Origin: Candidatus Heimdallarchaeota archaeon
Lineage (GTDB): Archaea > Asgardarchaeota > Heimdallarchaeia > Heimdallarchaeales > Heimdallarchaeaceae
Assembly: GCA_030668825.1 (NCBI GenBank)
Contig: DAOVET010000015.1
Span: forward strand, 135 to 24,134
Length of the DNA: 24,000 bases
Direction of reading: 5' to 3'
In this document: positions 135-21,895 of the stretch, one piece after another
Layout of the letters: the number at the start of each line of letters is the position of its first letter
How positions within the stretch are numbered: position 1 is the stretch's first letter
Program-made: the position numbers and the translations under genes
The notes under the pieces: model-generated
Databases searched by the model: none
Told to the model about the DNA's origin: nothing
Seen by the model: the letters and a program-made list of their open reading frames with translations, nothing else

Positions 135-1166
135 CTACAGACTGCCATAGTACAGCAGATTTTCCCTAATCTCCTTTTCGCTAAAACCTGCACTAATTCC
201 GACAATAATTCTGATTATATCCATTGTCTCAGCGAGCTTCAATTCAAAGAAACCAATTAATGCATCCATTTGCAGAACTGTTCCATAACGGAATGTCTTT
301 TTCCAGTAATTTAATAAGTATCTCTCAACTGCAAATTCCAAATCATGTAATGGAACTTCTTTAACACCAATATATTTAGAAAAGACTGTTCGATAAGGAG
401 CATAGTTATATGTTTCTAGAACTTCTTGAATACTTGTTGCCTTCAATCCCTTTACAGTGAATTTATTGCGTTGGATGAATCTATATGCAGGTACGTTTAG
501 AGCTATACAGCGGCATAAAGCTAAGATGTTTTTCATATTAACATATGTTTCATAATGCTTTGATACTTTAGGTAGCATACTATAGATATGTTGATCTATT
601 GCAGATTCTAGGGGAGTAAATCTTCCAGTTGCTTTAAATTCTTCATTTGCTAATTTGAGGTCTTCTCGCAGAGTCTGATTATCTTGGTTAACAATTATTT
701 CTTCAATTGACTTATTAAGTAATTTCGAATAATAATCGATTGAATAATCAGCAACTGGAACCAAACGGGATAAAATCTCTTCCTGCTTCATTTCTCTATT
801 TATGCCTTGAAATATTATACGAAGATTTTCAACGTGATATCTCTCACTGTAATTTCTAATTTTCTTCTTAACTGAGGATCCTGACTGTTTGTAGAATTTA
901 GTCAATAATTCAGAATAAGAATTTTTAAGATTTCTAGCTACATCAGAAATCTGTGTTTCAAAATTAAGGTCTCCAATAATGCTGTTATAGGCTGTTTGAG
1001 TAAAGGCAGCTCTTAATTCTTTAAGATTCTTAGAAGATAAAAGCAAGCTTATTTGTGATTTGGTTAAGAAGTTACTAACAGCCCCATGCGCTCTACCTAG
1101 TAAATAACTGATATCTCCAAGTGACATTTTAACTACCTTTTTGCCTGACAAAATTGATTGAAACAA
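135..1166 (-). CDS. atpC: A/V-type ATP synthase subunit C (AC39 / V0-d family)
   Basis: 343-aa helical ORF directly downstream of and overlapping the subunit I gene. The C-terminal ...ALIGFFELKLAETMDIIRIIVGISAGFSEKEIRENLL resembles the conserved AtpC/AC39 C-terminus. An internal ATG at 1127 (MSLGDISYLL...) lies 1 nt after the atpI stop and may be the true start. Confidence 0.75.
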   Translation of the reverse strand: MFQSILSGKKVVKMSLGDISYLLGRAHGAVSNFLTKSQISLLLSSKNLKELRAAFTQTAYNSIIGDLNFETQISDVARNLKNSYSELLTKFYKQSGSSVKKKIRNYSERYHVENLRIIFQGINREMKQEEILSRLVPVADYSIDYYSKLLNKSIEEIIVNQDNQTLREDLKLANEEFKATGRFTPLESAIDQHIYSMLPKVSKHYETYVNMKNILALCRCIALNVPAYRFIQRNKFTVKGLKATSIQEVLETYNYAPYRTVFSKYIGVKEVPLHDLEFAVERYLLNYWKKTFRYGTVLQMDALIGFFELKLAETMDIIRIIVGISAGFSEKEIRENLLYYGSL

Positions 1167-4100: not shown

Positions 4101-4332
4101 CTTTTAATGATGGAAGATCTTCCAATTGAATATTTAGAGCTTTGCTCAATCCCACTATTCTTTCCCATCTGTCCTCCATAATGTCTTTAGTTGATTGTAT
4201 TCTTGCTTGCTCTTTAGGACTTTGAGGGTCAACGATTATTTGTTCAAAGATATTAAGAGAAGATATCTTTGTCAATAGTGTATTTGTATTTTTGACTGGT
4301 ATCTGAACTTTTACTAGTTTAAACTTTGCCAT
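1129..4332 (-). CDS. atpI: A/V-type ATP synthase subunit I (a-subunit), unusually long, with a tandemly duplicated N-terminal cytoplasmic domain
   Basis: The C-terminal third is polytopic membrane sequence carrying the a-subunit signature ...ISNTLSFSRIMALLLVHAILS (conserved Arg) and FPFLFGIMFADIGHG. GGTGG lies 8-9 nt upstream of the ATG. At 1067 aa it is far longer than the ~650-700 aa typical of archaeal AtpI, because the soluble N-domain occurs twice (see findings). Confidence 0.85.
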   Translation of the reverse strand: MAKFKLVKVQIPVKNTNTLLTKISSLNIFEQIIVDPQSPKEQARIQSTKDIMEDRWERIVGLSKALNIQLEDLPSLKEDDLVFIKNHDEIIKGLDVFLEKYENQIIEKSSELQKLKKENRILSSLKQFQSNLDDEFSIDLLSSSSRTFTVLGEIPSEYKEIIRFYISEVTAGQMFFWSSPTDNSEKNVMICISLIDYKEQIGEILRENYFNETEFDLELLKSIEKIRETTRIEKLHSEVSQDIEKIEGDIRQLSTGLAEKTRYHLTLIKATHKTLTLEERGRTTSKNFTLWGWVASKNYSVLVENIDSLQIDSTIVILEDVPLSRKKERDIEQELLIKKLFDKEESKIDSYIPHPPHSGGGGEGFLFAKKALFVRLESPEDSSRQFISHIYSLNAIHPVKIGSLDENTLEKVNSLRQELSQYQSRVNRLLNMLKMKDTKEQNTEKYHIVDDYGHSKAFLENFLRENEEKIIKAFDSHEAILKKRDQVKLSLPFEEGLKEKGIDAVLLQDGFQTVTYLGVIPKSNLKSVKFFLKEVTDNNLIFWDSEPTSSSSNEKNILILSLKEYENSILRVLNEYSFQAIDYDLSLVERKVSLKDTLKEIEKELKESEEELQEIKDQVKYKLIACEELINVESNRLNTIELCQISEGKIVLWSWTSKTVLDQLNESKKDLPFEMEITENPDVPLVNPAITKQGKVFGAVRGIVGGIGQPNTKQVDPYSIVRFTFPFLFGIMFADIGHGILLSLLAGFLLYKKKKNKIEPDESITGYLYSGAELLLFCGLSATIFGFFFGSLLGDEHFIPELMHKAGINWIPIINPLHETKLILIVALMLGFLMIQLGILLKVYQNVRYGHGFASWGAPLSLSIIYVGIFTMLYNIIVGVNGIYWQAFHFTLKQLPSAFVYLVGLVPVLFVLEYLHAKSDGIMDAIDHIIALISNTLSFSRIMALLLVHAILSGLPFTLTGVDLVAGVSTFSGVFLDVAHIDLSHFAGGLIHGHYVSALSISWIWWVVGILLAVFIILPIEGLLSFLNTLRLHWVEWFSKFYSGDGKEFLPLKEKLVSINFVRQKGS

Positions 4333-5192: not shown

Positions 5193-5579
5193 TTAAGGCC
5201 CCGATAATACTTCTATTGCTTCTGGAACATATCTTTTAATTACTTGCATAGCTAAACCTACATTATGCAAATCTCTACTAGCACCAATCAAAATATATTC
5301 ATCAGCACTTGCTAGTATTGTAAATCCTTCTTCACCACGAATTAAAACTTGTTCCAAATCTCCATGTGCTAGATTTCCACTTACCATTTTTCCAGTTGAT
5401 AATATTGCAGAAGAAACCGCACTCAAGAGATCTGGATCTGTCCCCTTTTCAGAGAAGAAAGCAATTTTTATTCCTTCTGCATTAACAACTGCTAAAGCTT
5501 CTAAATCACACCCTAACGAGATTTGTTTTAATATTCTTACCAATTGTTTTTTTTGTGATACTGATAAATCAATAGACAT
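5193..5579 (-). CDS. Roadblock/LC7 (MglB-like) domain protein
   Basis: 128 aa. The pattern LEALAVVNAEGIKIAFFSEKGTDPDLLSAVSSAILSTGKMVSGNLAHGDLEQVLIRGEEGFTILASADEYILIGASRD fits the Robl/LC7 alpha-beta-alpha fold consensus. Confidence 0.75.
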   Translation of the reverse strand: MSIDLSVSQKKQLVRILKQISLGCDLEALAVVNAEGIKIAFFSEKGTDPDLLSAVSSAILSTGKMVSGNLAHGDLEQVLIRGEEGFTILASADEYILIGASRDLHNVGLAMQVIKRYVPEAIEVLSGP

Positions 5580-9316: not shown

Positions 9317-10726
9317 GTGTTATGTTTGCCGGCAATATCTAGTTGTAGCTTTTGTAGTAGTCCAGCACAATACTATTGTAAGTCATGTAAGAGAAAACTT
9401 TGTACTGAACATATTCATATATCAAATACAGTATACTTTTGCTCAACTTGTGAAACTGAGAGCCTTGATTCAAAATGTCATAAATGTGGTTCAGCTACAG
9501 AATTTTCCAGAAATGAGCCTACTAATAGCTGTGAATGGTGTAGATCAATAGATGTGGAAGATGGACTTCTTTATCATCAACAACTTCCACATTTGATATT
9601 TTCTTCATTTACTCTGTTGAACAAGAAGCTTGCACAAGTGTGGGATCTTACTCAGAAATATCTTGAAATTGTTAAGAACGTCTTTGAAATGAGAAAAGCG
9701 AAAATTATGCTTTTTGGTGATGTGGAAGATGAAATTACTTTACTTAGAAGCAAAATTTCAATATTCATTGATCAACTTGTCAAATTTGAAAATGATACTT
9801 TTGCAATGGTTGATGAGAAACTACGTGCAATCGGATATATGCGATTTACAAACGTGGATAACATAGAAAGAGGGGAAGAAATTCTTAATTTGCTTCAAAA
9901 TAGATTGGATTTACTTGATACAACCATAAAGTCAAAGTTTAATGAGATGGATGAAGATTTTCAAACCCTTAATCAAAAAGTAGATTTTCTTGGTTTTCAA
10001 TTTCGTTTGTTAAGTAAGATTTATCATCTCCTACCTGAAGACAAAGAAGAACATCTAATTTCTATTCTTCCACGGATTTGGCTAAAGAAGAACACTAAAT
10101 TACCAAAGAAATATCTTGTTGTTCTGACTAGTAAGAATTTATACTTGCTCCGAGAAAAGGGTTTGTTTAATGTTAGATTAAAAACAAAAGAAACCATAAG
10201 CTTGTCGTATATTATAAACAAGCAATATATTTCCAGATTATTATCTCGCAACATGTTTCGCTTCAAAACCAGATTAGATTCATATTCATTTCTTGGAAGA
10301 AAGAAGAGCCTTGAACAATTTATGATTTATTTTGAAATCATCGAAAATTACATAGATTATTCAATTCATAAATCCTCAATAATTGAAGACCTCAAGTACT
10401 ATTCACTCACTATTAATGAATTAAAAACCAACATACAAAGAAATGTAAGTCACCTTCGTGCTTATTTGCTTAATAAACGTGAATTGAAACGCGAATTATA
10501 CTGGAGAGAAGGACAAGATGCGAGATTCAAGAAACTGTTTGAGCAACTACTAGCTGTAGAACGAAAGATACATCGATTAAATGAAACCAGAAGGTATGGT
10601 TCTCGAGGTACCAAAGGTATAGATGGATTATTAAGGAAACTAACCAGTGAACATCATAGGCTCAAACGACATTTAGATGATATTCAAAGAAAAAGTGAAG
10701 AATTTGATGACATGTGGGAACTTTGA
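9317..10726 (+). CDS. Hypothetical multi-zinc-finger / coiled-coil / PH(GRAM/GLUE)-like domain protein
   Basis: GTG start. The N-terminus has C-x2-C-x7-C-x2-C-x4-C-x2-H-x-H followed by three further CxxC pairs (aa 10-75). Aa about 90-245 and 350-469 look like coiled coil. Aa about 248-345 (KKYLVVLTSKNLYLLREKG...ISLSYI...NMFRFKTRLDSYSFLGRKKSLEQFMIYFEII) has the beta-sandwich-plus-C-helix pattern of PH-like domains. Function unknown. Confidence 0.6.
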   Translation: MLCLPAISSCSFCSSPAQYYCKSCKRKLCTEHIHISNTVYFCSTCETESLDSKCHKCGSATEFSRNEPTNSCEWCRSIDVEDGLLYHQQLPHLIFSSFTLLNKKLAQVWDLTQKYLEIVKNVFEMRKAKIMLFGDVEDEITLLRSKISIFIDQLVKFENDTFAMVDEKLRAIGYMRFTNVDNIERGEEILNLLQNRLDLLDTTIKSKFNEMDEDFQTLNQKVDFLGFQFRLLSKIYHLLPEDKEEHLISILPRIWLKKNTKLPKKYLVVLTSKNLYLLREKGLFNVRLKTKETISLSYIINKQYISRLLSRNMFRFKTRLDSYSFLGRKKSLEQFMIYFEIIENYIDYSIHKSSIIEDLKYYSLTINELKTNIQRNVSHLRAYLLNKRELKRELYWREGQDARFKKLFEQLLAVERKIHRLNETRRYGSRGTKGIDGLLRKLTSEHHRLKRHLDDIQRKSEEFDDMWEL

Positions 10727-11158: not shown

Positions 11159-11458
11159 TTAGAATACAAGTAGGATAGCTACTAGTAGACCATAAATAGC
11201 CACGGCTTCAATCAACACTATGAAGAGAAAAGCTTTTCCGAAAATTTCAGGTTTTTCCACAATAGCACCTATGGCTGCACTTCCTGCCATCGCCATTCCT
11301 ATGGCGGCTGCAGCTCCAGCTATACCAACTGCTAGAGCTGCAGCGATTGGGGTTAAATCTGGAGTTTGAGCTAAAGCTGTTTCTGAGGCAAGAATCACTA
11401 AACTTGTTATTATTGTCATAAATGCAAAATTTCTTTTAGATTTCTTTTGAAAACGCAT
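11159..11458 (-). CDS. atpK: A/V-type ATP synthase proteolipid subunit K (c-subunit)
   Basis: 99 aa. Gly/Ala-rich helix IAAALAVGIAGAAAAIGMAMAGSAAIGAIVEKPE, then a second helix FLFIVLIEAVAIYGLLVAILL with the ion-binding Glu. GGTG lies 8 nt upstream of the ATG. An extra hydrophobic N-terminal segment (MTIITSLVILASETALA) is present. Confidence 0.85.
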   Translation of the reverse strand: MRFQKKSKRNFAFMTIITSLVILASETALAQTPDLTPIAAALAVGIAGAAAAIGMAMAGSAAIGAIVEKPEIFGKAFLFIVLIEAVAIYGLLVAILLVF

Positions 11459-11619: not shown

Positions 11620-12234
11620 ATGTTCCGTGACTTTATGGGTTGGCTTTTGGGTACAAAGAAGAGTCCTCGTGACCACATAATTAATCTTCGATTAACTGTA
11701 AGAAGATTAGAAAGAGCACAAAGGAAACTTTCTCGAGATGAATCCAAGATGCAGTTGAAAATGAAACAAAACATCCAACGAGGAGATTTGGAATCTGCAA
11801 GATTATTTGCTACTGATATTGTACGCAACAGAAGATGGGAATTTGGTTATCAGAAACTAGTCTCGCGTATGAATGGTCTAATCTTTAAATTAGAACGAGC
11901 TGATACAGCAGCAAGCATGGCTGAAGAAATGCATGGTATTGCTTCTGCTTTACGAACAGCAAATGCTCAATTACAGATTCCAGATTTAGATAGAGTTATT
12001 CAAGATATGGAAAGTTCAATTGATGGAATCGAAGAGTCAACAGGAACAATTGAAGATGGTATTGACGATTTACTAATTGCTGATACTGATCCAGCTGAAG
12101 TCGATAGATTAATTGAACAAACAGCTGCTGAATTAGGTGTTTCCACTCAAGCTGGATTACCAACAGTTGGTGTAGTGCAAACAGATGATTTAGAGGACGA
12201 AATCCAGAAATTAAGAAGAAGAGAAGAGGATTAA
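11620..12234 (+). CDS. ESCRT-III subunit, Vps2/Vps24/Vps46 (CHMP1-3)-like, with C-terminal MIM1-type helix
   Basis: 204 aa. The basic N-terminal hairpin ...RRLERAQRKLSRDESKMQLKMKQNIQRGDLESARLFATDIVRNRR parallels CHMP2 ...ELDRERQKLE..EKKIIADIKKMAKQGQMDAVRIMAKDLVRTRR. Acidic C-terminal half. The terminal DDLEDEIQKLRRRE parallels the CHMP2 tail DLEERLKNLRRD (the MIM1 consensus as I recall it is (D/E)xxLxxRLxxL(K/R)). Confidence 0.9.
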   Translation: MFRDFMGWLLGTKKSPRDHIINLRLTVRRLERAQRKLSRDESKMQLKMKQNIQRGDLESARLFATDIVRNRRWEFGYQKLVSRMNGLIFKLERADTAASMAEEMHGIASALRTANAQLQIPDLDRVIQDMESSIDGIEESTGTIEDGIDDLLIADTDPAEVDRLIEQTAAELGVSTQAGLPTVGVVQTDDLEDEIQKLRRREED

Positions 12235-12247
12235 AAGGTGAATAAAA

Positions 12248-12901
12248 ATGGTTAAGAATTGGCTTTTTGGAAAAAAAAGAAAAGAAGATGCTGATGCATT
12301 ATCTACACTCAAAGGACAACAAAACAGATTACAAGCAGAAGCTAGAAATCTTGAAAGGCAATCAGATGAACAGAAAATCTTAGCCTCAAAAATGCTCAAA
12401 GCTGGTAACAAAGCTGGAGCAAGACAAGCTCTTAAAAGAAGAGCTGTTTTCATGAAAAGGCTGAATACAGTTCATAACACAGGGATGAATTTACAAGCTC
12501 AGATAGATAGTATTCAAACAGCTACTTCAACCGCAGAAACTGTAAAAGCTATGGAACTTGGTACTAAAGTTGTTGGGGAGAAAATCAAAAGCGTTTCTCC
12601 TGAGAGAACAGAACGTGTTATGGATTCCGTAATGGAACAGAGAGATCAAATTGAAATGATGACTGAAGCTCTATCTGATCCAAGCTTATCTGAAGGTATT
12701 CTAGATTTTGAAGATGATGCAGCTATTGATGAGCAGTTAGCTCAATTAGAAGCTGAGATGGATTTAGGTACAACAACAAGCTTACCTGATGTTAGTGGTC
12801 TTCCTTCAACTCCTGTTGGAACAGGTGACAAAGAAGAAGATACATCAGAGCTTGAAGCTGAGCTTGAGGGATTAAAGAAGAAAATGAAGGAAGATAATTA
12901 G
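12248..12901 (+). CDS. ESCRT-III subunit, Vps20/Vps32/Vps60 (Snf7/CHMP4)-like
   Basis: 217 aa. KAGNKAGARQALKRRAVFMKRLNTVHNTGMNLQAQIDSIQTATSTAETVKAMELG parallels CHMP4 KNKRAALQALKRKKRYEKQLAQIDGTLSTIEFQREALENANTNTEVLKNMGYA. Acidic C-terminus. AAGGTGA lies 7 nt upstream of the ATG. Confidence 0.9.
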   Translation: MVKNWLFGKKRKEDADALSTLKGQQNRLQAEARNLERQSDEQKILASKMLKAGNKAGARQALKRRAVFMKRLNTVHNTGMNLQAQIDSIQTATSTAETVKAMELGTKVVGEKIKSVSPERTERVMDSVMEQRDQIEMMTEALSDPSLSEGILDFEDDAAIDEQLAQLEAEMDLGTTTSLPDVSGLPSTPVGTGDKEEDTSELEAELEGLKKKMKEDN

Positions 12902-13026: not shown

Positions 13027-14178
13027 GTGAATCACGTGTCTGCTCAAGGATTAATAGATCATGCAAGAGATTTTGCAGTCAAAGCTTATTCCTTTGATAA
13101 AGAAAAAAACTACAGTGAAGCTATTCCACACTATTTAGATGCTGCTGAAGCTTTAATGAAAGCCATAAGATTTGAAAGAAACCCTCAAGTTGCTCGTTCT
13201 CTCAAGAAGAAAGCCAATATGTACATTAGTAGAGCAAGGGAACTAAGGGAACTTCTAGAGAAGAGAAAAGAAAGGAAATCCACTGCAGGAAGTGATGAGG
13301 AGGAAAAACTAGAAAATGCTATATCTGATATAATCGTTACAGAGAAACCAAATATTACTTTAAAAGATATAGCAGGTCTAGAAACCGCAAAGCAAACCTT
13401 GAGAGAAGCTATTGTTTTACCTCTGATGCGACCTGATTTATTCTCTGGAGCAAGAAAACCTTGGAAAGGTATTTTGCTTTTTGGTCCTCCTGGTTGTGGT
13501 AAAACTCTTTTAGCAAAAGCAACTGCAGCTGAAGTAGAAGCAACTTTCTTCAATGTTAGTGCATCTTCAATCATTTCAAAATGGCTTGGTGAATCAGAGA
13601 AATTGGTTAAACAGCTTTTCGAATTAGCAGATGAAAAACAACCCAGTATTATTTTTATTGATGAAGTTGATGCTTTAGCCGGCGCCAGAGGTGGAGAACA
13701 TGATGCAATGCGTAGAGTTAAAACTGAGCTCTTAACATCAATGGACGGATTATCGAGTTCCGAAACTGACAGAATAGTTACTGTAGGTGCTACTAATATG
13801 CCTGAATCTATAGACGGAGCATTCAGAAGAAGATTCGAGAGAAGAATTTACATTCCTTTACCAGATTTACCAGCTCGTTCAGCTATTTTTGTTTTCAATA
13901 CCAGGGGTGTTGAACTAGCTGAAGATGCTGATTTCGAAGTTCTAGCAGAAATTACAGAAGGTTATTCAGGTTCTGATATAGCAATGGTATGTAGAGAAGC
14001 AATCATGACTCCAATCAGAGAACTTGATATGGCTGGAGCTATTGAAGATACTTCAGTAGCTGCCCGGTCAGTAACCCAAGATGATTTTCTTGAAGCAATT
14101 GAATCAATTAACCCCTCTGTAAGTGATGATGAAATAGAAAAATACGATAACTGGAATGAAGAATTCGGCAGCGCATGA
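13027..14178 (+). CDS. vps4: Vps4-like AAA+ ATPase with N-terminal MIT domain
   Basis: 383 aa. MIT-like three-helix N-terminus (AVKAYSFDKEKNYSEAIPHYLDAAEALMKAIRFE...ANMYISRARELRE). Walker A GPPGCGKT, pore loop KWLGESEK, Walker B IIFIDEVD, second region of homology GATNMPESIDGAFRRRFERRIYIPLP. An alternative GTG start at 13036 has better spacing to GAGGT (13021-13025). Confidence 0.95.
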   Translation: MNHVSAQGLIDHARDFAVKAYSFDKEKNYSEAIPHYLDAAEALMKAIRFERNPQVARSLKKKANMYISRARELRELLEKRKERKSTAGSDEEEKLENAISDIIVTEKPNITLKDIAGLETAKQTLREAIVLPLMRPDLFSGARKPWKGILLFGPPGCGKTLLAKATAAEVEATFFNVSASSIISKWLGESEKLVKQLFELADEKQPSIIFIDEVDALAGARGGEHDAMRRVKTELLTSMDGLSSSETDRIVTVGATNMPESIDGAFRRRFERRIYIPLPDLPARSAIFVFNTRGVELAEDADFEVLAEITEGYSGSDIAMVCREAIMTPIRELDMAGAIEDTSVAARSVTQDDFLEAIESINPSVSDDEIEKYDNWNEEFGSA

Positions 14179-14951
14179 TTCTAGAGGTTAAATCCATGTC
14201 TACCACTGAGAAGAAGAAGCCCAAGAAAGAGAGATCATCTGAAATAGATTTAAAAAAATTAAAAGATGAAAAAGAGATTTCAGATGAGAAATTAAAACTA
14301 ATTGAAGCCAGTATTAAAGGTTTGGAGATTACAGCTGAAGAATTGAAAGCTACTATGCCTGTTGATGCTGTTTTTATGAAAGAAGATCTCTCTAAAGATC
14401 AAAGGGCTATGCTTGAACTAGAATTTGAGGAAGAGCTTCCAAAATGGGTGAAGAGACCTTGGATGTATATCAAACCTAAGAAAACTGATCAAATTGAATC
14501 ATGGCTCCAGAGTTGGTCTGCGATAGTATTGGACTACTCCCGTATTTTTGTGATTCACATAATTAATATCAACGATTTGAGAAGTGGTCACCCCTTCAAT
14601 AACAAAAGTTTAGGTAAGAGATTAACCCTTGCACAGGTAAGAAGTATCATTGATCATTTAGTTCAACAGGATATTGCTCGTTGGTTAGATGAAAAAACAA
14701 AAACAAGGGCTCGCATTTATTGGAAATCAAATGAAGAATGGGCAGATGCACTATTAGACTTCATGCTAGATACTGGAAGAGTGGTTGAAATACACTCACT
14801 TTACGATTTAACTCAGTTGGAACAAAATTGGGGGAATTTGCCTGCTGATGATCTTATTATTGTGTGCGAAATGCTAGTAGAACGTAAAGTTGCTCGTTGG
14901 TTAAACAAAGAAAAAACAATAATTCAGTTTGAAGCTGATAAAGTGTTTTAG
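14175..14951 (+). CDS. ESCRT-II subunit Vps25-like (tandem winged-helix), with Lys/Glu-rich N-terminal extension
   Basis: The C-terminal ~170 aa WLQSWSAIVLDYSRIF...HPFNNKSLGKRLTLAQVRSIIDHLVQQDIARWLDEKTKTRARIYWKSNEEWADALLDFMLDTGRVVEIHSLYDL...LIIVCEMLVERKVARWLNKEKTIIQF aligns by eye with human VPS25 (LAAWCSLVLSFCRLH...PLFNNVKLQRKLPVESIQIVLEELRKKGNLEWLDKSKSSFLIMWRRPEEWGKLIYQWV...VFTLYEL). The ATG overlaps the vps4 stop (ATGA). An alternative ATG at 14196 is preceded by GAGGT. Confidence 0.85.
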   Translation: MILEVKSMSTTEKKKPKKERSSEIDLKKLKDEKEISDEKLKLIEASIKGLEITAEELKATMPVDAVFMKEDLSKDQRAMLELEFEEELPKWVKRPWMYIKPKKTDQIESWLQSWSAIVLDYSRIFVIHIININDLRSGHPFNNKSLGKRLTLAQVRSIIDHLVQQDIARWLDEKTKTRARIYWKSNEEWADALLDFMLDTGRVVEIHSLYDLTQLEQNWGNLPADDLIIVCEMLVERKVARWLNKEKTIIQFEADKVF

Positions 14952-14966: not shown

Positions 14967-15704
14967 TTATAGTCCCATTAAACCTGGAAACCAGAATTTT
15001 ACTCCTTCAGAATAGCTACGGTCAACTCTAGCTATGCTATTTTCTTCAAAGAATTTTAAACATCTATCTATTCGTTCTTCAGTCCAACTTGTTCTCATGA
15101 GTAAATCTTCCTTTGTAACAAAACCAACTCTGGATGCATAATTTAGAATAACATCATGGTCTGGACTAAACTCAACAGGAACAAATTCAACAATCTTCAA
15201 TCCTGAATCTAACACTCTATATGGTGGGATTAATTGAGTATTGATTAATTTCTCCAAGGATCGATACATATCATCAATTGAAACCATCCTCCCAGGACGA
15301 GTTTTATTTAGCTGTGTGAATAGTTCTCCGATTGCCATAATTCCACCGTTTTCTGATATCATCTGTTGCCCTATTTCAAGAATTTCATTAGCTAATACAT
15401 CAAAGAAGCCCTTTCCAGTAAGTTTATCTTTGAGAGTTGGAGTTTCTTTCCAGTCAAAACGTCCAATTTCGGTGGGTAATCCTAATTCTTCTCGCAGATT
15501 TGCTAATTTATCATAATAATCTTTATTTTCAGAGATCTTATCACCGTATTTTTTCTCAAACTTTTTCAGTTGTTTTTTGACTTCACTAATATTATTTACC
15601 ATCTGTTCTAATTCTTTAATCATTAGCTCTGCCGCTTTTACTTGAAAAGCTGACTTAATTTTGATCTTTTTCTCTATATCTCTTAAACCCACTTCTATCT
15701 CCAA
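14967..15704 (-). CDS. ESCRT-II subunit Vps22/Vps36-like (EAP30 domain)
   Basis: 245 aa. N-terminal coiled-coil helix, then FFDVLANEILEIGQQMISENGGIMAIGELFTQLNKTRPGRMVSIDDMYRSLEKL...LKIVEFVPVEFSPDHDVILNYASRVGFVTKEDLLMRTSWTEERIDRCLKFFEENSIARVD...KFWFPGL. This parallels human EAP30/VPS22 ([33 protein letters not shown]...VSQDDLIRAIKKL...YLIQSVPAELNMDHTVVLQLAEKNGYVTVSEIKASLKWETERARQVLEHLLKEGLAWLD...HYWLPALF). Confidence 0.85.
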   Translation of the reverse strand: MEIEVGLRDIEKKIKIKSAFQVKAAELMIKELEQMVNNISEVKKQLKKFEKKYGDKISENKDYYDKLANLREELGLPTEIGRFDWKETPTLKDKLTGKGFFDVLANEILEIGQQMISENGGIMAIGELFTQLNKTRPGRMVSIDDMYRSLEKLINTQLIPPYRVLDSGLKIVEFVPVEFSPDHDVILNYASRVGFVTKEDLLMRTSWTEERIDRCLKFFEENSIARVDRSYSEGVKFWFPGLMGL

Positions 15705-15761: not shown

Positions 15762-16076
15762 TTATACAGTGTTTGATAATTTTAAAAGCCATTTCTTTAT
15801 CTTTTCAGTTAAAGAGCTACTCTCCCTTGGTGAAAGAAAAGCTGCAAGTTTGTTTTTATATTTGTTAAAATATGAATTATAGACATTCATCATTTCTTCA
15901 TGGATTTGCTTACCTTCTTCTCCTAAATTCTTGATTTCGTATGAAATATCTTCCAATTCCTCAAGAATATAGCCCATATCTATCTTTATCTCTATCATGT
16001 TGATTAATTCAAACATTTCTTTTCTAATGTTAACAAATATCTCGTTAATAGAGCTAGTTCTTTCCAAGTAATTCAC
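15762..16076 (-). CDS. Small helical hypothetical protein between the ESCRT-I-like and ESCRT-II-like genes
   Basis: 104-aa ORF (GTG start), Glu/Lys/Asn-rich and predicted helical. Co-oriented with and 64 nt downstream of the UEV-Vps28 gene. No recognisable motif. Confidence 0.5.
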   Translation of the reverse strand: MNYLERTSSINEIFVNIRKEMFELINMIEIKIDMGYILEELEDISYEIKNLGEEGKQIHEEMMNVYNSYFNKYKNKLAAFLSPRESSSLTEKIKKWLLKLSNTV

Positions 16077-16140: not shown

Positions 16141-17589
16141 TTAAAGTTCTTTCAATACTCTTCGAAAGTCATTTAACCAACGAGCTGCTTGAAATTCTAA
16201 TTTTTCGCAATCTTCTTCTTTAATGATCTCCTGCGGCTTATATTTTCCTATAATTTCACGCCAATTATTCATATCTCCAATAACCCAATGGTCTTTTGGT
16301 ATTGAAGGAAATGTTTTCAGAATGTGAATCATTTCTTCGATGTCTGCTATTATGAGATCTGCTCTAGCTACTGATCTTAATCTAGTTAAATCAATAAGTT
16401 CAATCGCAGATGAAACGAAATCAGCTGTTTTAGATGGGATTTTCTTGAGTGTATCAAATGGAATTGAGCTGGTATCTGCAGTTTCTTTCCCTTCAACAAC
16501 CATGAGTTGTTTGATTCCCTTTTGATATCTATTATTTAGATTCTCTCGTTTCACAAAATCATCTAAATTAAATCCTACTTTTTCTAATTCTAATCTTGTT
16601 TTGAAAATTCCTCTAATAAGCGCACGAAGTTGCTTTCTATAAGCAATCTGCTCAATTTCACTTTTTTCGTAACTGCTAACTAGATTGTCTAAAGTTGCAA
16701 TTGAAGCAAACAGATCAGCTTCCAAATTCAATATTTTTTCTTCTGCTTTTGTCATGTCACCACTTGAGCTACTTTTAACTTGAGTGAGTTGTTTCTCAGC
16801 TATAAAACCTTTTTTAGCATATCTTTTATGTAATTTGAGGTAATCAATATTAGTCATGTCACCATCCTCAAATTTTTCCTGTATTATTTCTAGAGTATCT
16901 TGGACAGATAATGATTCAGCTCTCAAATCGTCTTCTAATGATATAGAAATCTCTTTAGTTCTACTTTGTACAGCTATTCCGCCTTCTTTCAATAGAGCTT
17001 CTCTTTCTTTTTCTATATCTCTGGAAACATGCTCTATTTTATCTTGATAATTGACAATTGTTTTATCGATAGATCGTCTTTCTTCCTCAATTCTTGGATC
17101 TATACTTGCGAAAGAAGCTTGAGGTATTGTCTTCACAGGAATTGTTGCTCTAGGTAATGTTGAAAATCTTTGTTCCCCTTTTGGTTTCTTAGTCTTTGTC
17201 TTGTATGGTTTAGCAGGAACATTGATGAAAAGTTGTTTTATATCAATCATAACCTGATAAATATGATACCTAATTTCCCATTCTGCAAGAAGACGCATAC
17301 TTAATGTGCCATCTTCATCCACATTAGGGTGATTTACTTTAGGAGTAATATCAACAAATGGAGGTATTTCAGGGAAACCATCCTGAATGTAAATGTTGGC
17401 AAAAATTGGTATCTCAGTACCTTCTATTGTTCCAACATAGCCTTTCCATTGTTTCAAATTACCTCTAACAGGTTCGAAATTTATTTGTTTATCGAATACT
17501 AATTGCATTTCATTTGCAAGATGGAAATCGTCTGTGGAAATTTTGTTCACCTTTCTAATTATATCTCTAAATAACTTGATACCAATCAA
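16141..17589 (-). CDS. ESCRT-I-like fusion protein: N-terminal UEV (catalytically inactive E2 fold) + Pro/Lys linker + coiled-coil stalk + C-terminal Vps28-like domains
   Basis: Aa 40-125 NLKQWKGYVGTIEGTEIPIFANIYIQDGFPEIPPFVDITPKVNHPNVDEDGTLSMRLLAEWE match the UBC core (YPFKPPKV..HPNI...G.ICLDIL), with HPN kept but the active-site Cys replaced by Ser97. Aa 285-482 (LFASIATLDNLVSSYEKSEI...; ADFVSSAIELIDLTRLRSVARADLIIADIEEMIHILKTFPSIPKDHWVIGDMNNWREIIG...CEKLEFQAARWLNDFRRVL) parallel human VPS28 (LFAVVKTMQALEKAYIKD...; IADVVSLFITVMDKLRLEIRAMDEIQPDLRELMETMHRMSHLPPDFEGRQTVSQWLQTLSG...VRQMLFDLESAYNAFNRFL). Confidence 0.8.
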   Translation of the reverse strand: MIGIKLFRDIIRKVNKISTDDFHLANEMQLVFDKQINFEPVRGNLKQWKGYVGTIEGTEIPIFANIYIQDGFPEIPPFVDITPKVNHPNVDEDGTLSMRLLAEWEIRYHIYQVMIDIKQLFINVPAKPYKTKTKKPKGEQRFSTLPRATIPVKTIPQASFASIDPRIEEERRSIDKTIVNYQDKIEHVSRDIEKEREALLKEGGIAVQSRTKEISISLEDDLRAESLSVQDTLEIIQEKFEDGDMTNIDYLKLHKRYAKKGFIAEKQLTQVKSSSSGDMTKAEEKILNLEADLFASIATLDNLVSSYEKSEIEQIAYRKQLRALIRGIFKTRLELEKVGFNLDDFVKRENLNNRYQKGIKQLMVVEGKETADTSSIPFDTLKKIPSKTADFVSSAIELIDLTRLRSVARADLIIADIEEMIHILKTFPSIPKDHWVIGDMNNWREIIGKYKPQEIIKEEDCEKLEFQAARWLNDFRRVLKEL

Positions 17590-17630: not shown

Positions 17631-18635
17631 TTACTCAGATAATTGTAAAACTATTTTGATTGGTTGGGCTAAATTCTTGTCTAGAACGAATACAATAGCC
17701 TTTTTAGAATCCAGCGCATCTTCAAGTAATGATTCAACCTTTAACAGTTTTCCTTGCACCATTAAGTCTGGTTTTTCTAACCCATAAGTCAACATCAATC
17801 TCATTCTGAGCTCTTTTACAGTTTCAGTTGGAAGCGCCACAAACTCGATTTGTTCTAATTTATACATCTCTCCACAGGCTGGACAGTCCTTGGTTTTTTC
17901 TAGTTCTATAATTGTAGTAGCATTATGAAGACCATCATAGAAGAGATAATTTTCCAATTTTTCACCTAGTTCCAGAATTAACTTTATTGTTTCCTGAGCC
18001 ATTATCCCCCCAATAATTGATGATAATGTAGCAACAGCTGGCAATGGTGGCTCTACATCTATTTCTTTCCTCTCCTTTTTCCTTTCTTCCCCAAATGGAG
18101 AGCATGCTTGAGCTAACTCTTCGTCTGGTACCAAAGGCTGGCATTCGAAACAAGCTGTTTCATACGGAATAATTACTTGTGCATTACCCAAGAAAGCAAA
18201 CATACCCCCCATAACAAGTGGTTTTTTTACTCGAATAGCCATCGAATTGATCCATCTTCTTCCAATAAAAGTATCTAAACAAGCCACTATAACATCTGCT
18301 TGCTCATAAACTGATACTGAAATATTCTCCATCTTTTTATGATAAAAATCAATCTCGATTTTGGGGTTTATTTCTTTCAATCTTTGTACAGCTGTTTCTG
18401 ATTTTGATTTACCAACATCCTCATCTTTGAACAATAATTGTCGATTTAGATTCGAAACTTCAATTGTATCAAAATCAATAATCGTAAGTTTACCTATTCC
18501 TGAAGAGACAAGTACAGTTGCTGCATAGCTCCCTATTGCTCCAACCCCCACTAGAACAACAGAACTATTGTCAAGTTTTAGTTGATCCCATCCTGGAATA
18601 AGTTGTTGTCTTGAGTAGCGCTCATCTCCATCCAT
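17631..18635 (-). CDS. E1-like ubiquitin-activating enzyme (ThiF/MoeB/UBA fold) with C-terminal extension
   Basis: 334 aa. YSRQ...VVLVGVGAIGSYAATVLVSSGIGKLTIIDFDTIEVSNLNRQLLF (Rossmann GxGxxG plus NLNRQ). Zn-site pairs CFEC (162-165) and CPAC (251-254). Cys178 lies in a charged crossover-like loop. About 75 extra C-terminal residues. Sits immediately downstream of the ubiquitin-like gene. Confidence 0.9.
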   Translation of the reverse strand: MDGDERYSRQQLIPGWDQLKLDNSSVVLVGVGAIGSYAATVLVSSGIGKLTIIDFDTIEVSNLNRQLLFKDEDVGKSKSETAVQRLKEINPKIEIDFYHKKMENISVSVYEQADVIVACLDTFIGRRWINSMAIRVKKPLVMGGMFAFLGNAQVIIPYETACFECQPLVPDEELAQACSPFGEERKKERKEIDVEPPLPAVATLSSIIGGIMAQETIKLILELGEKLENYLFYDGLHNATTIIELEKTKDCPACGEMYKLEQIEFVALPTETVKELRMRLMLTYGLEKPDLMVQGKLLKVESLLEDALDSKKAIVFVLDKNLAQPIKIVLQLSE

Positions 18636-18774: not shown

Positions 18775-19011
18775 CTAAAGTCCACCTTTAGTTCTAGCAA
18801 TAAGATAGCATTTATCGCCATCCATCATTCCTGTTTGTTTTAGTATCTCACTGTCATCAAGTTGCTTACCATGGAAAACTATAATGACGGTGTTCGCAGG
18901 AATTTTCTTCTTTTTAGCAACTTCTCTCTTTAATTGAGCAACTGTTGAATGTGGATCAACATCTAAATCTATTTTTCCTCCACCAATTGCTGTTACTACA
19001 GTTATTCTCAC
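18775..19011 (-). CDS. Ubiquitin-like modifier (beta-grasp), C-terminus ...RTKGG-L
   Basis: 78 aa (GTG start). MRITVVTAIGGGKIDLDVDPHSTVAQLKREVAKKKKIPANTVIIVFHGKQLDDSEILKQTGMMDGDKCYLIARTKGGL aligns along its full length with ubiquitin ([76 protein letters not shown]). This includes the GKQL (K48-equivalent) motif and a di-glycine followed by one extra residue. Confidence 0.85.
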   Translation of the reverse strand: MRITVVTAIGGGKIDLDVDPHSTVAQLKREVAKKKKIPANTVIIVFHGKQLDDSEILKQTGMMDGDKCYLIARTKGGL

Positions 19012-19120: not shown

Positions 19121-19519
19121 TTAATAGGTTGTCTTCTTTTCCCTTTCTCCCTTTCTTTTTATTGTTATAGAGGAAGGAATCCCCTCTATCTCTCTTTCTA
19201 GCTTTTTGACACCTAATCTCGATATCTGTTTTCCCTCAAGAAAACCAATCTTAATCATATATAACACGTTTTTGAAAATTGTTTCTGCAGTTGGTTTTTT
19301 AGATAGATTCTCATAGAGATTGATCCAGTAATTATAAGCATCTGGGCCCAAAAAATATTCCATTAACGCCAATTTATCTTTTTCTTCTATACTTGCTGGA
19401 GATTCTTCTGCCTCTTTTAACTCTTCCATACGCTGTTTTCTTTGTTCAGCAATTTGCATTAATTCTTTTGCTTTTCTTTGCTTAATTTTCTCCAGTTCAT
19501 CATCAGTTGTCATTGGCAA
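19121..19519 (-). CDS. PDCD5/TFAR19-like dsDNA-binding-domain protein
   Basis: 132 aa. The charged N-terminal helix ELEKIKQRKAKELMQIAEQRKQR and the core LSKKPTAETIFKNVLYMIKIGFLEGKQISRLGVKKLEREI...ITIKRKG parallel PDCD5 ([39 protein letters not shown]...VKFNRRK). Start is TTG 19519 or ATG 19513. Confidence 0.7.
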   Translation of the reverse strand: MPMTTDDELEKIKQRKAKELMQIAEQRKQRMEELKEAEESPASIEEKDKLALMEYFLGPDAYNYWINLYENLSKKPTAETIFKNVLYMIKIGFLEGKQISRLGVKKLEREIEGIPSSITIKRKGEREKKTTY

Positions 19520-20423: not shown

Positions 20424-21044
20424 ATGTATGATGAACATAGAACTCAAAAAGTTGCTCGAATTATAGAAATCCCCATTCCTCTTGAGTTCTTCGATATGTT
20501 GCAGGATTTGGTTTCATACTATGGGAATAATGATAAAGCAGTTTTAGAGTCTATCAAGGCACATCATAAGGAAATGTTCGGCTCATTGGATGATTTTAGA
20601 ATACAGATAGCGTCAACAGTCTCCAGAGGAGTGAAAACGGTTTCTGGGATGAATACCCCTGTTACGGATGGTAGATTAGCTAGAATCATTGAGAATGGTA
20701 AGAAATTTGAACAAAAAACCCAGAAAGAAATTGAAAAAGTGGATAAATTACTTAATAAACTTGAAAATACTACTGTTTTTAAGGAATTGAAAGAAGAAAT
20801 CTCTTCAATGAAAAGTATGATTGAGAGAATACAATCTACAGGGGTAATCACACAAAAACCTAGAGGTCCCAAAGCAGATCTTTCTTCTTTGGAAATAGAA
20901 ATTGATGATTCAGTAACAGGATCAATGTCTCCACCAGAAAGACCCTTGCTTGATACAGTTCTAGATAGTATGCTTTTCTTTGATGATGAAGAATTAGCTG
21001 AAGATTCTGAAGAAGAAATCAAAAAAGAAACAGAAGAAAATTAA
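20424..21044 (+). CDS. Hypothetical protein with central coiled coil and strongly acidic C-terminus
   Basis: 206-aa ORF with normal Lys/Glu-rich composition for this genome. The antisense 152-aa ORF is Ser-rich shadow sequence. The N-terminal KVARIIEIPIPLEFFDMLQDLVSYYG..AVLESIKAHH is weakly reminiscent of a ribbon-helix-helix, which is not supportable without a profile search. Confidence 0.5.
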   Translation: MYDEHRTQKVARIIEIPIPLEFFDMLQDLVSYYGNNDKAVLESIKAHHKEMFGSLDDFRIQIASTVSRGVKTVSGMNTPVTDGRLARIIENGKKFEQKTQKEIEKVDKLLNKLENTTVFKELKEEISSMKSMIERIQSTGVITQKPRGPKADLSSLEIEIDDSVTGSMSPPERPLLDTVLDSMLFFDDEELAEDSEEEIKKETEEN

Positions 21045-21045
21045 T

Positions 21046-21582
21046 TTATTTTTTTGATTGATTGACTAATAATTGTGCAATATTAGTGAAAGCTTCCTCT
21101 ACTTGATTTCCAGTTAATGCACTTGTTCTGATGCTAAAATGGCTTTTTATTTTTGTGTGAACTGCATCATATTCTTTTTTTGAAACAGCAATTTGATTTT
21201 TTAAATCTTCTTTATTACCAATAAGAACTTTGATTACATCTTTACCACAGTTATCTACAAATTCTTTTTCCCACTTTTGAACATCTTTGAGAGTTGCAGC
21301 TCTTGTTAAATCATAAACTAATAATGCTGCCCTTGCCCCTTTATAGAATGTGTGTCGGATGAAACGAAACCTTTCTTGCCCTGCTAAATCCCAGATAGAA
21401 AGAGCAACTCTTGTTCCATCTTCTAAATCTATGTGTTTTTCAGACGGTTCCATGCCGATAGTCATAAGGTAGGAACTATCAAATCTATCGTGAACAAATC
21501 GTTGTACTAAACTTGTTTTACCAACAGCTGCGGATCCTAATAATAAGATTTTGTAGTTGTAATCTGGTTGAATTTTACTCAT
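21046..21582 (-). CDS. Ras-superfamily small GTPase (Rab/Ras-like), no C-terminal prenylation cysteines
   Basis: 178 aa. G1 GSAAVGKTS, switch I YLMTIGME, G3 WDLAGQERF, G4 GNKEDL, G5 TSALTG. The C-terminus ...LLVNQSKK lacks a CAAX or CC motif. Confidence 0.9.
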   Translation of the reverse strand: MSKIQPDYNYKILLLGSAAVGKTSLVQRFVHDRFDSSYLMTIGMEPSEKHIDLEDGTRVALSIWDLAGQERFRFIRHTFYKGARAALLVYDLTRAATLKDVQKWEKEFVDNCGKDVIKVLIGNKEDLKNQIAVSKKEYDAVHTKIKSHFSIRTSALTGNQVEEAFTNIAQLLVNQSKK

Positions 21583-21583
21583 T

Positions 21584-21895
21584 TTACTCCTCTTCTAGTA
21601 GTTTAGCTATTCTTTCCAAATCCTCTATGAGACTATCTAAATAAAACTTTTCAAAACTACCCTCAGCTCTGTCAATAGTACTTAGAGAAATACAGAGATC
21701 TTCAATGGCTTCTTTGTGTTCTTTTTCTTGTTGTGTCGGTAAATAGCTCTTTATTTTTCTTAGAACTTTTTTTGCCATTCCTGAAGTGAGTTTGCGATTA
21801 ATTGTACCTTCTTGATAAGCTTGTACTGTAGAGCGCATCCATAAAGCCACGTTATACAAATTGTCAATCTCATCGGGAGGGGAAATAGTGGTCAT
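21584..21895 (-). CDS. Hypothetical helical protein, translationally coupled upstream partner of the small GTPase
   Basis: 103-aa ORF ending 1 nt before the GTPase ATG. Helical, acidic C-terminus (LIEDLERIAKLLEEE). No recognisable family. Confidence 0.55.
   Translation of the reverse strand: MTTISPPDEIDNLYNVALWMRSTVQAYQEGTINRKLTSGMAKKVLRKIKSYLPTQQEKEHKEAIEDLCISLSTIDRAEGSFEKFYLDSLIEDLERIAKLLEEE

Follow-up and report, generated by a model that had tools for sequence, protein, structure and literature searches.

Does a single gene of this heimdallarchaeal contig really encode the modules of ESCRT-I on one polypeptide, and, if so, is that chain complete in itself and is its E2-fold domain purely a reader of ubiquitin? 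We addressed these questions in the window, by which we mean the whole 24,000-nucleotide stretch of DNA analysed here. We hold it highly probable that the gene is the Heimdallarchaeial ESCRT-I fusion UEV-Vps23-Vps28, the ortholog of HeimAB125_14070.

The fusion gene, its cluster and its published ortholog

The maximal ORF (16141..17589, minus strand) comprises 482 codons counted from a TTG, with the stop codon at 16141-16143. The first-pass annotation had taken it as a single polypeptide of 482 aa. The uninterrupted ORF does exist, but its length has to be revised. The homologs of the fusion protein are mostly 469 aa long, and at least 14 related loci have an in-frame stop 0–6 codons upstream of a conserved GTG, other start codons being absent there. 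Therefore, the GTG at 17550 (residue 14 of the 482-codon frame) is most likely the true start, and the CDS would then span 16141-17550 on the minus strand and encode 469 aa instead of 482.

We next considered an artefactual origin of the fusion, in which separate vps23 and vps28 genes had only seemingly become one, through a frameshift, an overlooked stop codon or chimeric assembly. Split forms do occur in other lineages: among proteins without the fusion, the UEV domain has its nearest relatives in UEV+Vps23_core proteins of 220–307 aa, and some Vps28 proteins stand alone and begin with a disordered stretch (P0048–P0050). However, in the survey of related genomes that had been proposed with the first-pass annotation, the fusion was intact in 28 of 30 Heimdallarchaeota loci, the remaining two being cut by contig ends. 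In these 28 independent assemblies, two of them closed chromosomes (Ca. Heimdallarchaeum aukensis and Ca. H. endolithica), tblastn gave a single unbroken segment over residues ∼13–482. The same architecture was observed in another 30 full-length database proteins, and the AB_125 protein has been expressed full-length (PMC9192718). We therefore rejected the artefact, whose chance of being correct we consider practically nil. The family has 50 database homologs and 30 genomic loci and is not a product of chance; the contigs closest to the window are 96% identical to it (L001–L003).

One 400-aa homolog without a UQ_con match (P0035) was considered as a UEV-less variant and discarded. Its sequence starts with VNHPNVEDDG, within the UEV domain, so that the gene call, made on a short contig, is either truncated or wrongly started. 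P0036, also of 400 aa, with the same Pfam matches and on a similarly short contig, was assumed to be a call of the same kind. A divergent fusion of 445 aa (P0124) also occurs.

The fusion gene resides in a cluster of ubiquitin and ESCRT genes whose arrangement is conserved in the 30 Heimdallarchaeota loci. On the minus strand, ubiquitin (18775..19011; 78 aa, ending in KGGL; Pfam ubiquitin, E=1.7e-14) and an E1-like ubiquitin-activating enzyme (ThiF, 17631..18635; Pfam ThiF, E=3.1e-64) precede the fusion gene, the E1 gene being directly upstream of it. A gene for a conserved 104-aa helical protein (15762..16076) and that for a Vps22-like ESCRT-II subunit (EAP30, 14967..15704; Pfam EAP30, E=2e-20) follow on the same strand. 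The plus strand carries genes for a Vps25-like ESCRT-II subunit (14175..14951; Pfam ESCRT-II, E=3.5e-21), Vps4 (MIT + AAA + Vps4_C, 13027..14178) and two ESCRT-III proteins of the Snf7 family (11620-12234 and 12248-12901).

HeimAB125_14070 of Ca. Heimdallarchaeota AB_125 has been described as a UEV-Vps23-Vps28 fusion (Hatano et al. 2022, PMC9192718). It aligns colinearly with the window protein at 87% identity over 97% of the length (E∼1e-267), with identities of 92.9% in the UEV domain, 66% in the linker, 78% in the stalk/steadiness-box part and 93.1% in the Vps28 part. Although the window represents a different species-level MAG lineage from AB_125, both proteins have the HPN...TLSMRL motif and the gene order Vps25, Vps22, small ORF, fusion. 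They differ at the sequence level only, and these differences are concentrated in the linker and the stalk/steadiness-box part. The fusion reading is correct but, with this 87%-identical ortholog published and assayed in 2022, known since that year and not a new discovery; the 'minimal one-chain ESCRT-I' is itself the published interpretation. HeimAB125_14070 corresponds to OLS31938.1, and the fusion is called 'UEV-Vps28' in the literature.

Domain architecture of the fusion protein

The first-pass annotation had listed a UEV domain, a linker, a coiled-coil stalk and Vps28 in this order, and had proposed structure prediction and comparison as a check. Pfam, a profile-to-PDB search, AlphaFold2 (AF2) and Foldseek agree on this domain reading, and all of the listed parts were recovered; a Vps23 steadiness-box hairpin had, however, been overlooked. 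The N-domain has the UBC fold, the C-terminal 200 aa are Vps28-like and the ORF is unbroken in the 28 full-length orthologous loci. Among the 30 orthologs, Pfam UQ_con and VPS28 matched all, and Vps23_core and UEV matched 29 each. A search of NCBIfam returned no model for the fusion protein. The AF2 models have a pLDDT of 76 at full length and of 83 for residues 161–482, and the relative arrangement of the domains in them is of low confidence (pTM 0.37 and 0.51).

The Lys/Pro-rich linker proposed earlier is present (17098..17211, minus strand, residues 127–164) and is predicted to be disordered, with pLDDT <50 for residues 132–163. It is the least conserved segment of the protein (mean pairwise identity 0.39), with the exception of a near-invariant VPAKPYKTK at the UEV/linker boundary (residues 124–132).

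The coiled coil of about 115 aa did not survive the analysis. This region is really one stalk helix (16984..17097, minus strand, residues 165–202; AF2 models) followed by the two-helix hairpin of the Vps23 core or steadiness box (16771..16938, minus strand, residues 218–273). Pfam Vps23_core (PF09454) matched residues 221–264 with E=4.6e-5 and 23.8 bits, slightly below its cut-off of 26.8, and the best match among the orthologs reached 2.7e-9. Foldseek superposed the hairpin on yeast Vps23-C (2f6m_C) with a TM-score of 0.92, an rmsd of 0.7 and 27% identity. Since the Vps23 core/steadiness box is present, the protein is Vps23+Vps28 and not UEV+Vps28.

Both Vps28 regions were found at the C-terminus, as had been claimed. 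Pfam VPS28 (PF03997) matched residues 291–479 over profile positions 2–188 of 188 (E=9.3e-10, 39 bits; cut-off 24.5 bits). The N-terminal core (16492..16749, minus strand) consists of a hairpin (residues 281–336) and short helices (342–366). The profile search against the PDB matched it to the Vps28-N structures 2f66_B, 2f6m_B, 2p22_B and 2caz_B with E-values of ∼0.006–0.01 (yeast 2f66_B, E=0.006), and Foldseek gave TM-scores of 0.71–0.77 with human and yeast Vps28-N (6vme, 2f6m_D). The C-terminal four-helix bundle (16144..16440, minus strand, residues 384–482) has its four helices at 384–481 in the AF2 model, with pLDDT 83–94. It matched the Vps28 CTD structure 2j9w both in the profile search (E=0.008) and in Foldseek (TM 0.85, rmsd 1.6–1.8 over 97 columns). 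For the helical parts, the Foldseek E-values are weak (0.04–2) despite these high TM-scores. The CTD is the most conserved module of the protein (mean pairwise identity 0.79).

The E2-fold domain and Ser97

Pfam, AF2 and Foldseek assign the E2/UBC fold to the UEV domain (17212..17550, minus strand, residues 14–126). In the AF2 model (pLDDT 75–90), it consists of a helix (19–34), four strands (38–82), a short helix (99–102) and a further helix (110–123). The UQ_con profile (PF00179) matched residues 35–128 with E=1.9e-10 and 40.9 bits, against a curated cut-off of 27 bits. This match ends at profile position 116 of 140, and the model lacks both C-terminal E2 helices, helix 110–123 running directly into the disordered linker. 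The UEV profile (PF05743) gave 19.1 bits (E=1.2e-3), under its cut-off of 27; its matches to the orthologs are at E<0.01, the best being 3e-7. Of these two profiles, that of the E2s is the closer to the N-domain, and Foldseek placed E2 structures on top with a probability of 1.00 and the UEV-like domain of VPS37A at rank 3.

The earlier reading of a UBC fold that keeps the HPN triad but has its catalytic Cys replaced by Ser was confirmed by the codons, phmmer, Pfam and Foldseek. The triad H87 P88 N89 (17323..17331, minus strand) is encoded by CAC CCT AAT, and Ser97 (17299..17301, minus strand; codon AGT) occupies the catalytic Cys position. In the phmmer alignments to UbcH10/UBE2C and Rad6, S97 is over the catalytic Cys and HPN over HPN.

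The first-pass annotation had also raised the possibility of residual transfer chemistry on Ser97. Cys-to-Ser mutants of E2s form stable oxyesters in an E1-dependent manner. In the Ser-bearing clade, the domain with HPN and Ser97 might be charged by the adjacent E1 to give a stable ubiquitin oxyester, serving as a slow E2-like intermediate or as a self-loading switch. ESCRT-I would in that case have a ubiquitin of its own bound covalently and be more than a pure reader. The invariance of HPN in 30/30 orthologs, the Ser in 27/30 and the location of the fusion gene directly downstream of E1 and near ubiquitin are in line with such a reaction; the words 'oxyester' and 'thioester' are absent from PMC9192718, and neither published study reports such a test.

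However, the three remaining orthologs have Asn, Ala or Lys as residue 97, and none of the 30 has Cys. Among the 61 closest UEV relatives, 16 different residues occupy the catalytic Cys position (most commonly S11, N8, R5, T5, H4, V4, Q4, A4, K4 and D4), while the His is kept in 56 and the Pro in 46. The missing C-terminal E2 helices, as well as the bona fide Cys-bearing E2s encoded elsewhere in the AB_125 genome, also argue against the oxyester. Moreover, HeimAB125_14070 binds ubiquitin non-covalently through its UEV domain, which recognises the hydrophobic patch of ubiquitin, and this binding is lost with Ub V45D (PMC9192718). We therefore give the oxyester only a very slim chance. The position of residue 97 varies among the orthologs and across the broader Asgard UEV family, whereas His-Pro is retained; this weakens the proposal of Ser97 chemistry, and, judged from these alignments, HP(N) seems to be a structural remnant of the fold and not a mark of chemistry.

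Non-covalent reading of ubiquitin is the function that we prefer for this domain. In SPR measurements, UEV domains from Asgard archaea, among them that of UEV-Vps28, bound ubiquitin with KD values of 0.67–7.2 µM across the tested pairs (bioRxiv 10.1101/2023.07.25.550441). Residues 1–77 of the window ubiquitin, whose gene is three genes away from that of the fusion, are identical to those of HeimAB125_14240, with which the published binding assays were performed (PMC9192718 supplement). With a UEV domain 93% identical to that of the ortholog, the window protein is predicted to be a ubiquitin binder, and we infer that it would behave like HeimAB125_14070 in general.

Candidate partners, proposed hand-over and comparison with known systems

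All the ESCRT-I domains are on one chain, as the first-pass annotation had stated in proposing a minimal one-chain ESCRT-I. The words 'one chain' may nevertheless be too strong, because the ortholog reportedly dimerises and a conserved 104-aa gene always adjoins the fusion gene. This gene belongs to the HeimAB125_14060 family (accession presumably OLS31937), which has 41 members and is confined to the same clade as the fusion. It is adjacent to and co-directional with the fusion gene and vps22, between the two, in 30/30 loci, even where the E1-Ub block has been relocated (L023, L024). The 104-aa protein had no match in Pfam and NCBIfam, and the profile search of the PDB gave nothing below E=0.3. 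With hhalign, its alignment to the C-terminal part of the fusion family had a probability of 0.2%, and we rejected the idea that it is a steadiness box standing alone. Neither HeimAB125_14060 nor OLS31936-OLS31938 is mentioned in the supplements of PMC10936438 and PMC9192718.

These observations bear on whether the fusion is a complete ESCRT-I or part of a larger assembly with the 104-aa protein, with a nearby Zn-ribbon/PH/coiled-coil protein (9317-10726), or with both, which would supply a third headpiece or stalk element as Vps37 and Mvb12 do in eukaryotes. The constant position and clade-limited distribution of the 104-aa gene are consistent with the larger assembly, and so is the count of hairpins: the eukaryotic headpiece needs three (PMC10936438), and the fusion chain provides two. 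A Znr_PH_CC_SB protein has been proposed as an additional Asgard ESCRT-I subunit (Makarova et al., PMC10936438), and in the 469-aa ORF 9317-10726, whose synteny holds in at least 15 loci, three CxxC pairs occur together with an extended helical region. On the other hand, the 104-aa family has no similarity to steadiness boxes detectable by hhalign or in the PDB search, and the published model, whose figure states that HeimAB125_14070 dimerises, fills the third position by homodimerisation (PMC9192718). We therefore regard the larger assembly as possible though rather doubtful, and the 104-aa protein as a candidate partner of the fusion protein.

For the fusion itself, the following course of events may be proposed. 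The Cys-less E2-fold domain would bind ubiquitin non-covalently via the hydrophobic patch (V45) and so capture ubiquitylated cargo. The flexible linker and the short stalk helix would join it to the consecutive hairpins of the Vps23 steadiness box and the Vps28 N-core. In the eukaryotic ESCRT-I headpiece, separate subunits contribute these hairpins; here one chain, whose ortholog is reported to dimerise, links them covalently. The highly conserved Vps28 CTD is predicted to bind ESCRT-II (a Vps22 dimer with Vps25) and would hand over to it; in AB_125, Heimdall ESCRT-I contacts Vps22 in the yeast two-hybrid assay (PMC9192718). ESCRT-II would then recruit the two ESCRT-III proteins and Vps4 encoded alongside. 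The order ESCRT-I, ESCRT-II, ESCRT-III/Vps4 is what we infer for the window.

The Heimdallarchaeial fusion is a key piece for reconstructing the origin of eukaryotic ubiquitin–ESCRT sorting from Asgard archaea. This significance has been appreciated since 2022, and biochemical work on the near-identical AB_125 protein exists. The window adds a further lineage-level ortholog and modest refinements: the conserved GTG start, an invariant HPN with a non-essential Ser97, the strongest constraint among the modules on the Vps28 CTD and the strictly co-inherited 104-aa neighbour. The latter, not discussed in the papers cited here, is the only lead of some fresh value.

Eukaryotic ESCRT-I (Vps23/Tsg101, Vps28, Vps37, Mvb12/UBAP1) has in common with the window protein the UEV domain, a helical stalk, steadiness-box hairpins and an ESCRT-II-linking Vps28 C-terminal bundle. 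In the eukaryotic complex, Vps23 and Vps28 are separate, whereas here they form one polypeptide, in a system without a Vps37 or Mvb12 homolog. The stalk differs in being a single helix of ∼38 residues, and the UEV domain is nearer to E2s than to Tsg101, as it keeps HPN and scores higher with UQ_con than with UEV. In yeast, the partner of the Vps28 CTD is the NZF zinc finger of Vps36; Asgard ESCRT-II is without Vps36, and therefore the interface must differ from that of yeast (PMC9192718).

Canonical E2s (UBE2C, Rad6, UbcH5) have the same UBC core fold and HPN, and match the N-domain best in both sequence and fold. The latter departs from them by having Ser97 instead of Cys, by the loss of the two C-terminal helices and by being embedded in an ESCRT-I scaffold. 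The split Asgard ESCRT-I, e.g. of Ca. Odinarchaeum LCB_4, shares the UEV, stalk, steadiness-box and Vps28 modules with the fusion. Its complex is reported to contain two Vps23 and one Vps28, and binding of Vps28 reportedly relieves the autoinhibition of UEV-Vps23 (PMC9192718; bioRxiv 10.1101/2023.07.25.550441). There, Vps28 is encoded by a separate gene, while in the fused form it is permanently attached. Likewise, a free-standing Vps23/Tsg101 assembles with a separate Vps28, whereas the window protein has its Vps28 fused in one ORF.

Reading frame, gene cluster and distribution

The fusion gene, which encodes a UEV-Vps23-Vps28 ESCRT-I chain, occupies 16141-17589 (-) as 482 codons without interruption in a window of ~33% G+C. 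Direct reading of the codons confirmed the coordinates and motifs reported in the first-pass annotation: HPN is encoded by CAC CCT AAT (17331-17323 (-)) and Ser97 by AGT (17301-17299 (-)). Most homologs have 469 aa; their first codon corresponds to residue 14 here, for which the window has GTG at 17550. This conserved GTG is preceded in-frame by a stop 0-6 codons upstream, without another start codon, in at least 14 related loci, and residues 1-17 had a pLDDT of ~41 in the AlphaFold2 model. Because of the homolog lengths, the upstream stops and this low pLDDT, the protein most likely has 469 aa and starts at GTG 17550. Ser97 in the 482-codon numbering used here is Ser84 in the 469-aa numbering, in agreement with the published one.

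The gene lies within a canonical Asgard ubiquitin-ESCRT cluster. On the plus strand are two Snf7-family ESCRT-III genes (11620-12901), Vps4 (13027-14178) and Vps25 (14175-14951); on the minus strand, the fusion gene is accompanied by Vps22/EAP30 (14967-15704), a 104-aa ORF of the HeimAB125_14060 family (15762-16076), a ThiF-type E1 (17631-18635) and ubiquitin (18775-19011). The encoded ubiquitin terminates in ...KGGL, with one residue beyond Gly-Gly, and would presumably have to be processed at its C-terminus to be activated; the window contained no recognisable deubiquitinase or JAMM gene. A 132-aa protein (19121-19519 (-)) is linked to the ubiquitin and E1 genes wherever the locus flanks reach far enough, even at the two loci where this block has moved (L023, L024). 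It gave a weak full-length match to the NCBIfam 'DNA-binding protein' model PRK04239 (E=4.4e-6, 26.8 bits, cut-off 98), which we take to be the archaeal PDCD5-like family. Further out, a Ras/Rab-like small GTPase (21046-21582 (-); Pfam Ras E=3.4e-46) is flanked by two unannotated ORFs, one of 206 aa (20424-21044 (+)) and one of 103 aa (21584-21895 (-)); in ~14 loci, synteny with the cluster extends to the GTPase and the 206-aa ORF. Subunits C/AC39, I and c of an A/V-type ATPase and a Roadblock/LC7 protein, the latter upstream of the ESCRT cluster, occupy 135-4332 (-), 5193-5579 (-) and 11159-11458 (-). Subunit I is unusually long (1067 aa), and its Pfam match spans residues 386-791 only.

Scanning one genome per GTDB species yielded 30 fusion loci; the nearest contigs were 96% identical. 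The loci include AB_125 and the closed chromosomes of Ca. Heimdallarchaeum aukensis and Ca. H. endolithica. Twenty-four carry the labels Candidatus Heimdallarchaeota or Heimdallarchaeum, and the remaining six are labelled as archaeal MAGs under generic names or other bins ('uncultured archaeon', 'archaeon', 'Promethearchaeati', 'Thorarchaeota'). A single unbroken tblastn segment covered the whole protein in 28 of the 30 loci, contig ends cutting the other two, and therefore a frameshift or misassembly as the origin of the fusion was ruled out.

Split forms occur outside the clade. A search of 1.84 billion cluster representatives gave proteins of 220-307 aa as the closest non-fusion relatives of the UEV domain, and five of the eight that were scanned with Pfam have a Vps23_core match beside the E2/UEV domain. 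Stand-alone Vps28 proteins with a disordered N-terminus were also found (P0048-P0050). A divergent 445-aa fusion, P0124, has UQ_con and VPS28 matches and no Vps23_core match in Pfam; its UEV domain is 33% identical and has Met at the Cys position. It may belong to a second lineage of the UEV-Vps28 fusion or have arisen independently.

Domain anatomy of the fusion protein

The first-pass annotation described a UBC-fold domain with HPN kept and Ser in place of Cys, a coiled coil of about 115 aa and both Vps28 regions. The first and last of these were supported by the searches and models. Pfam placed UQ_con (E2 fold) at residues 35-128 (E=1.9e-10, 40.9 bits, cut-off 27), the Tsg101-type UEV model matching weakly (19.1 bits), and VPS28 at residues 291-479 (E=9.3e-10, 39 bits, cut-off 24.5; model positions 2-188 of 188). 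In phmmer searches of PDB sequences, the N-domain aligned with UBE2C/UbcH10, Rad6 and UbcH5, HPN falling on HPN and Ser97 on the catalytic Cys. With the full-length AlphaFold2 model (mean pLDDT 76.4), Foldseek against the PDB returned E2 enzymes on top and the UEV-like domain of VPS37A at rank 3. The modelled N-domain comprises helix 19-34, four strands (38-82), a short helix (99-102) and helix 110-123, which leads directly into a disordered Lys/Pro linker (pLDDT <50 for 132-163). It therefore lacks the two C-terminal helices of the full E2 core, as UEV domains do.

For the C-terminal model (residues 161-482, mean pLDDT 82.6), the ESCRT-related Foldseek matches included Xenopus Vps28 CTD (C-terminal domain) 2j9w (target-normalised TM 0.85, rmsd 1.6-1.8, 97 columns), yeast Vps28-N 2f6m_D (TM 0.71), yeast Vps23-C 2f6m_C (TM 0.92, rmsd 0.7, 27% identity) and chains of the human ESCRT-I headpiece 6vme (TM 0.73-0.77). 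The Foldseek E-values of these matches are weak (0.04-2), as expected of short helical domains; Pfam agrees with the matches, as does a profile search against PDB sequences, in which yeast Vps28-N 2f66_B (E=0.006) and Xenopus Vps28-CTD 2j9w (E=0.008) aligned where expected. The coiled coil did not hold as one element: the models have a stalk helix (165-202), a loop and a two-helix hairpin (218-241 and 248-273), the latter being the Vps23 core or steadiness box (SB), where Pfam Vps23_core matched residues 221-264 just below its cut-off (E=4.6e-5, 23.8 bits, cut-off 26.8).

At the family level the module assignments are robust, with UQ_con and VPS28 detected in all 30 orthologs and Vps23_core (best 2.7e-9) and UEV (best 3e-7) in 29 each. 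Mean pairwise identity decreased in the order CTD (0.79), Vps28-N (0.69), UEV (0.67), SB (0.57), stalk (0.51) and linker (0.39). The stretch VPAKPYKTK at the UEV/linker junction (17203-17220 (-), residues 124-132) is nearly invariant across the 30 orthologs in an otherwise poorly conserved linker, particularly at V124, P125, A126, K130, T131 and K132; it may form the final element of the fold or serve as a conserved linear motif.

Published orthologs and the Ser97 position

The protein shares 97% identity with a MAG protein in NCBI from Candidatus Heimdallarchaeaceae. With HeimAB125_14070 of Candidatus Heimdallarchaeota archaeon AB_125, it shares 87% identity across 97% of its length (UEV 92.9%, linker 65.8%, stalk and SB 78%, Vps28 93.1%). 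Hatano et al. (PMC9192718), who reported HeimAB125_14070 to be a UEV-Vps23-Vps28 fusion, purified it full-length and showed by BS3 crosslinking that Heimdall ubiquitin is bound both by the full protein and by the UEV domain alone, binding being greatly reduced by Ub V45D. Yeast two-hybrid assays also detected this interaction, as well as contacts of Heimdall ESCRT-I with Vps22; the model figure states that the fusion 'also dimerises', and the supplementary UEV alignment already includes the segment 'NHPNV...DEDGTLSMRL' (PMC9192718). A preprint notes that UEV-Vps28 is co-located with ubiquitin and reports, by SPR, KD values of 0.67-7.2 uM across the tested pairs of ubiquitin and Asgard UEV domains, UEV-Vps28 included (bioRxiv 10.1101/2023.07.25.550441). 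Residues 1-77 of the window ubiquitin are identical to the HeimAB125_14240 ubiquitin of the published assays. The ORF is a new ortholog of an already published, partly characterised family; the first-pass observation is confirmed and its interpretation of the protein supported. The fresh leads are only the conserved 104-aa neighbour and the possible Ser/E1 chemistry.

The Ser/HPN question is the sole part of the finding that the published papers on the UEV-Vps28 fusion do not discuss; 'oxyester' and 'thioester' occur nowhere in PMC9192718. HPN is present in 30 of 30 fusion orthologs, and the Cys-equivalent position holds Ser in 27, the remaining three having Asn, Ala or Lys. In a set of 61 of the closest UEV relatives, this position takes 16 different residues (S11, N8, R5, T5, H4, V4, Q4, A4, K4, D4, M3 and others); Cys occurs once, in a sequence resembling a true E2. 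His, Pro and Asn of the triad are kept in 56, 46 and 29 of the 61, respectively. Because HP(N) persists whatever residue replaces Cys, the comparison fits a motif that serves the fold structurally and speaks against a conserved nucleophile. Given this pattern, the absent C-terminal E2 helices and the published non-covalent binding, we consider residual transfer chemistry at Ser97 highly improbable.

Candidate partners and the ESCRT-I headpiece

The chain carries the two headpiece hairpins, Vps23-SB and Vps28-N, in direct succession, with the Vps28 CTD after them. In the most likely mode of action, the UEV domain would bind cargo ubiquitin at the hydrophobic patch, the protein would self-associate and ESCRT-I would contact Vps22, each as shown for the ortholog; cargo might then be handed over to a Vps22 dimer and Vps25, and subsequently to ESCRT-III and Vps4. 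The conservation of the CTD is as expected if it makes an obligatory contact, presumably with ESCRT-II. In the preprint, autoinhibition of UEV-Vps23 is relieved by Vps28 binding (bioRxiv 10.1101/2023.07.25.550441); as Vps28 is covalently attached in the fused form, this relief would be constitutive.

The eukaryotic ESCRT-I headpiece has three hairpins and the fusion chain two, Vps23-SB and Vps28-N; the description as a one-chain ESCRT-I may be too strong. The published answer to the missing hairpin is dimerisation (PMC9192718). The 104-aa helical protein is a candidate for an alternative or additional ESCRT-I/II partner: in 30 of 30 loci its gene separates the fusion gene from vps22 and shares their strand, and it stays put even in the two closed genomes with a relocated E1-Ub block. 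Its family has 41 members and showed no similarity to steadiness boxes or anything else in Pfam, NCBIfam, PDB and hhalign searches. The consulted papers do not refer to it, either in their main texts or in their searchable supplements. Makarova et al. (PMC10936438) proposed a 'Znr_PH_CC_SB' protein as an extra Asgard ESCRT-I component. The 469-aa ORF at 9317-10726 (+) resembles it in architecture and is a putative member, having three N-terminal CxxC...CxxC pairs, a long helical middle and a helical C-terminus; Pfam gave at most a weak B-box match, and the ORF is syntenic, past the Snf7 genes, in at least 15 loci.
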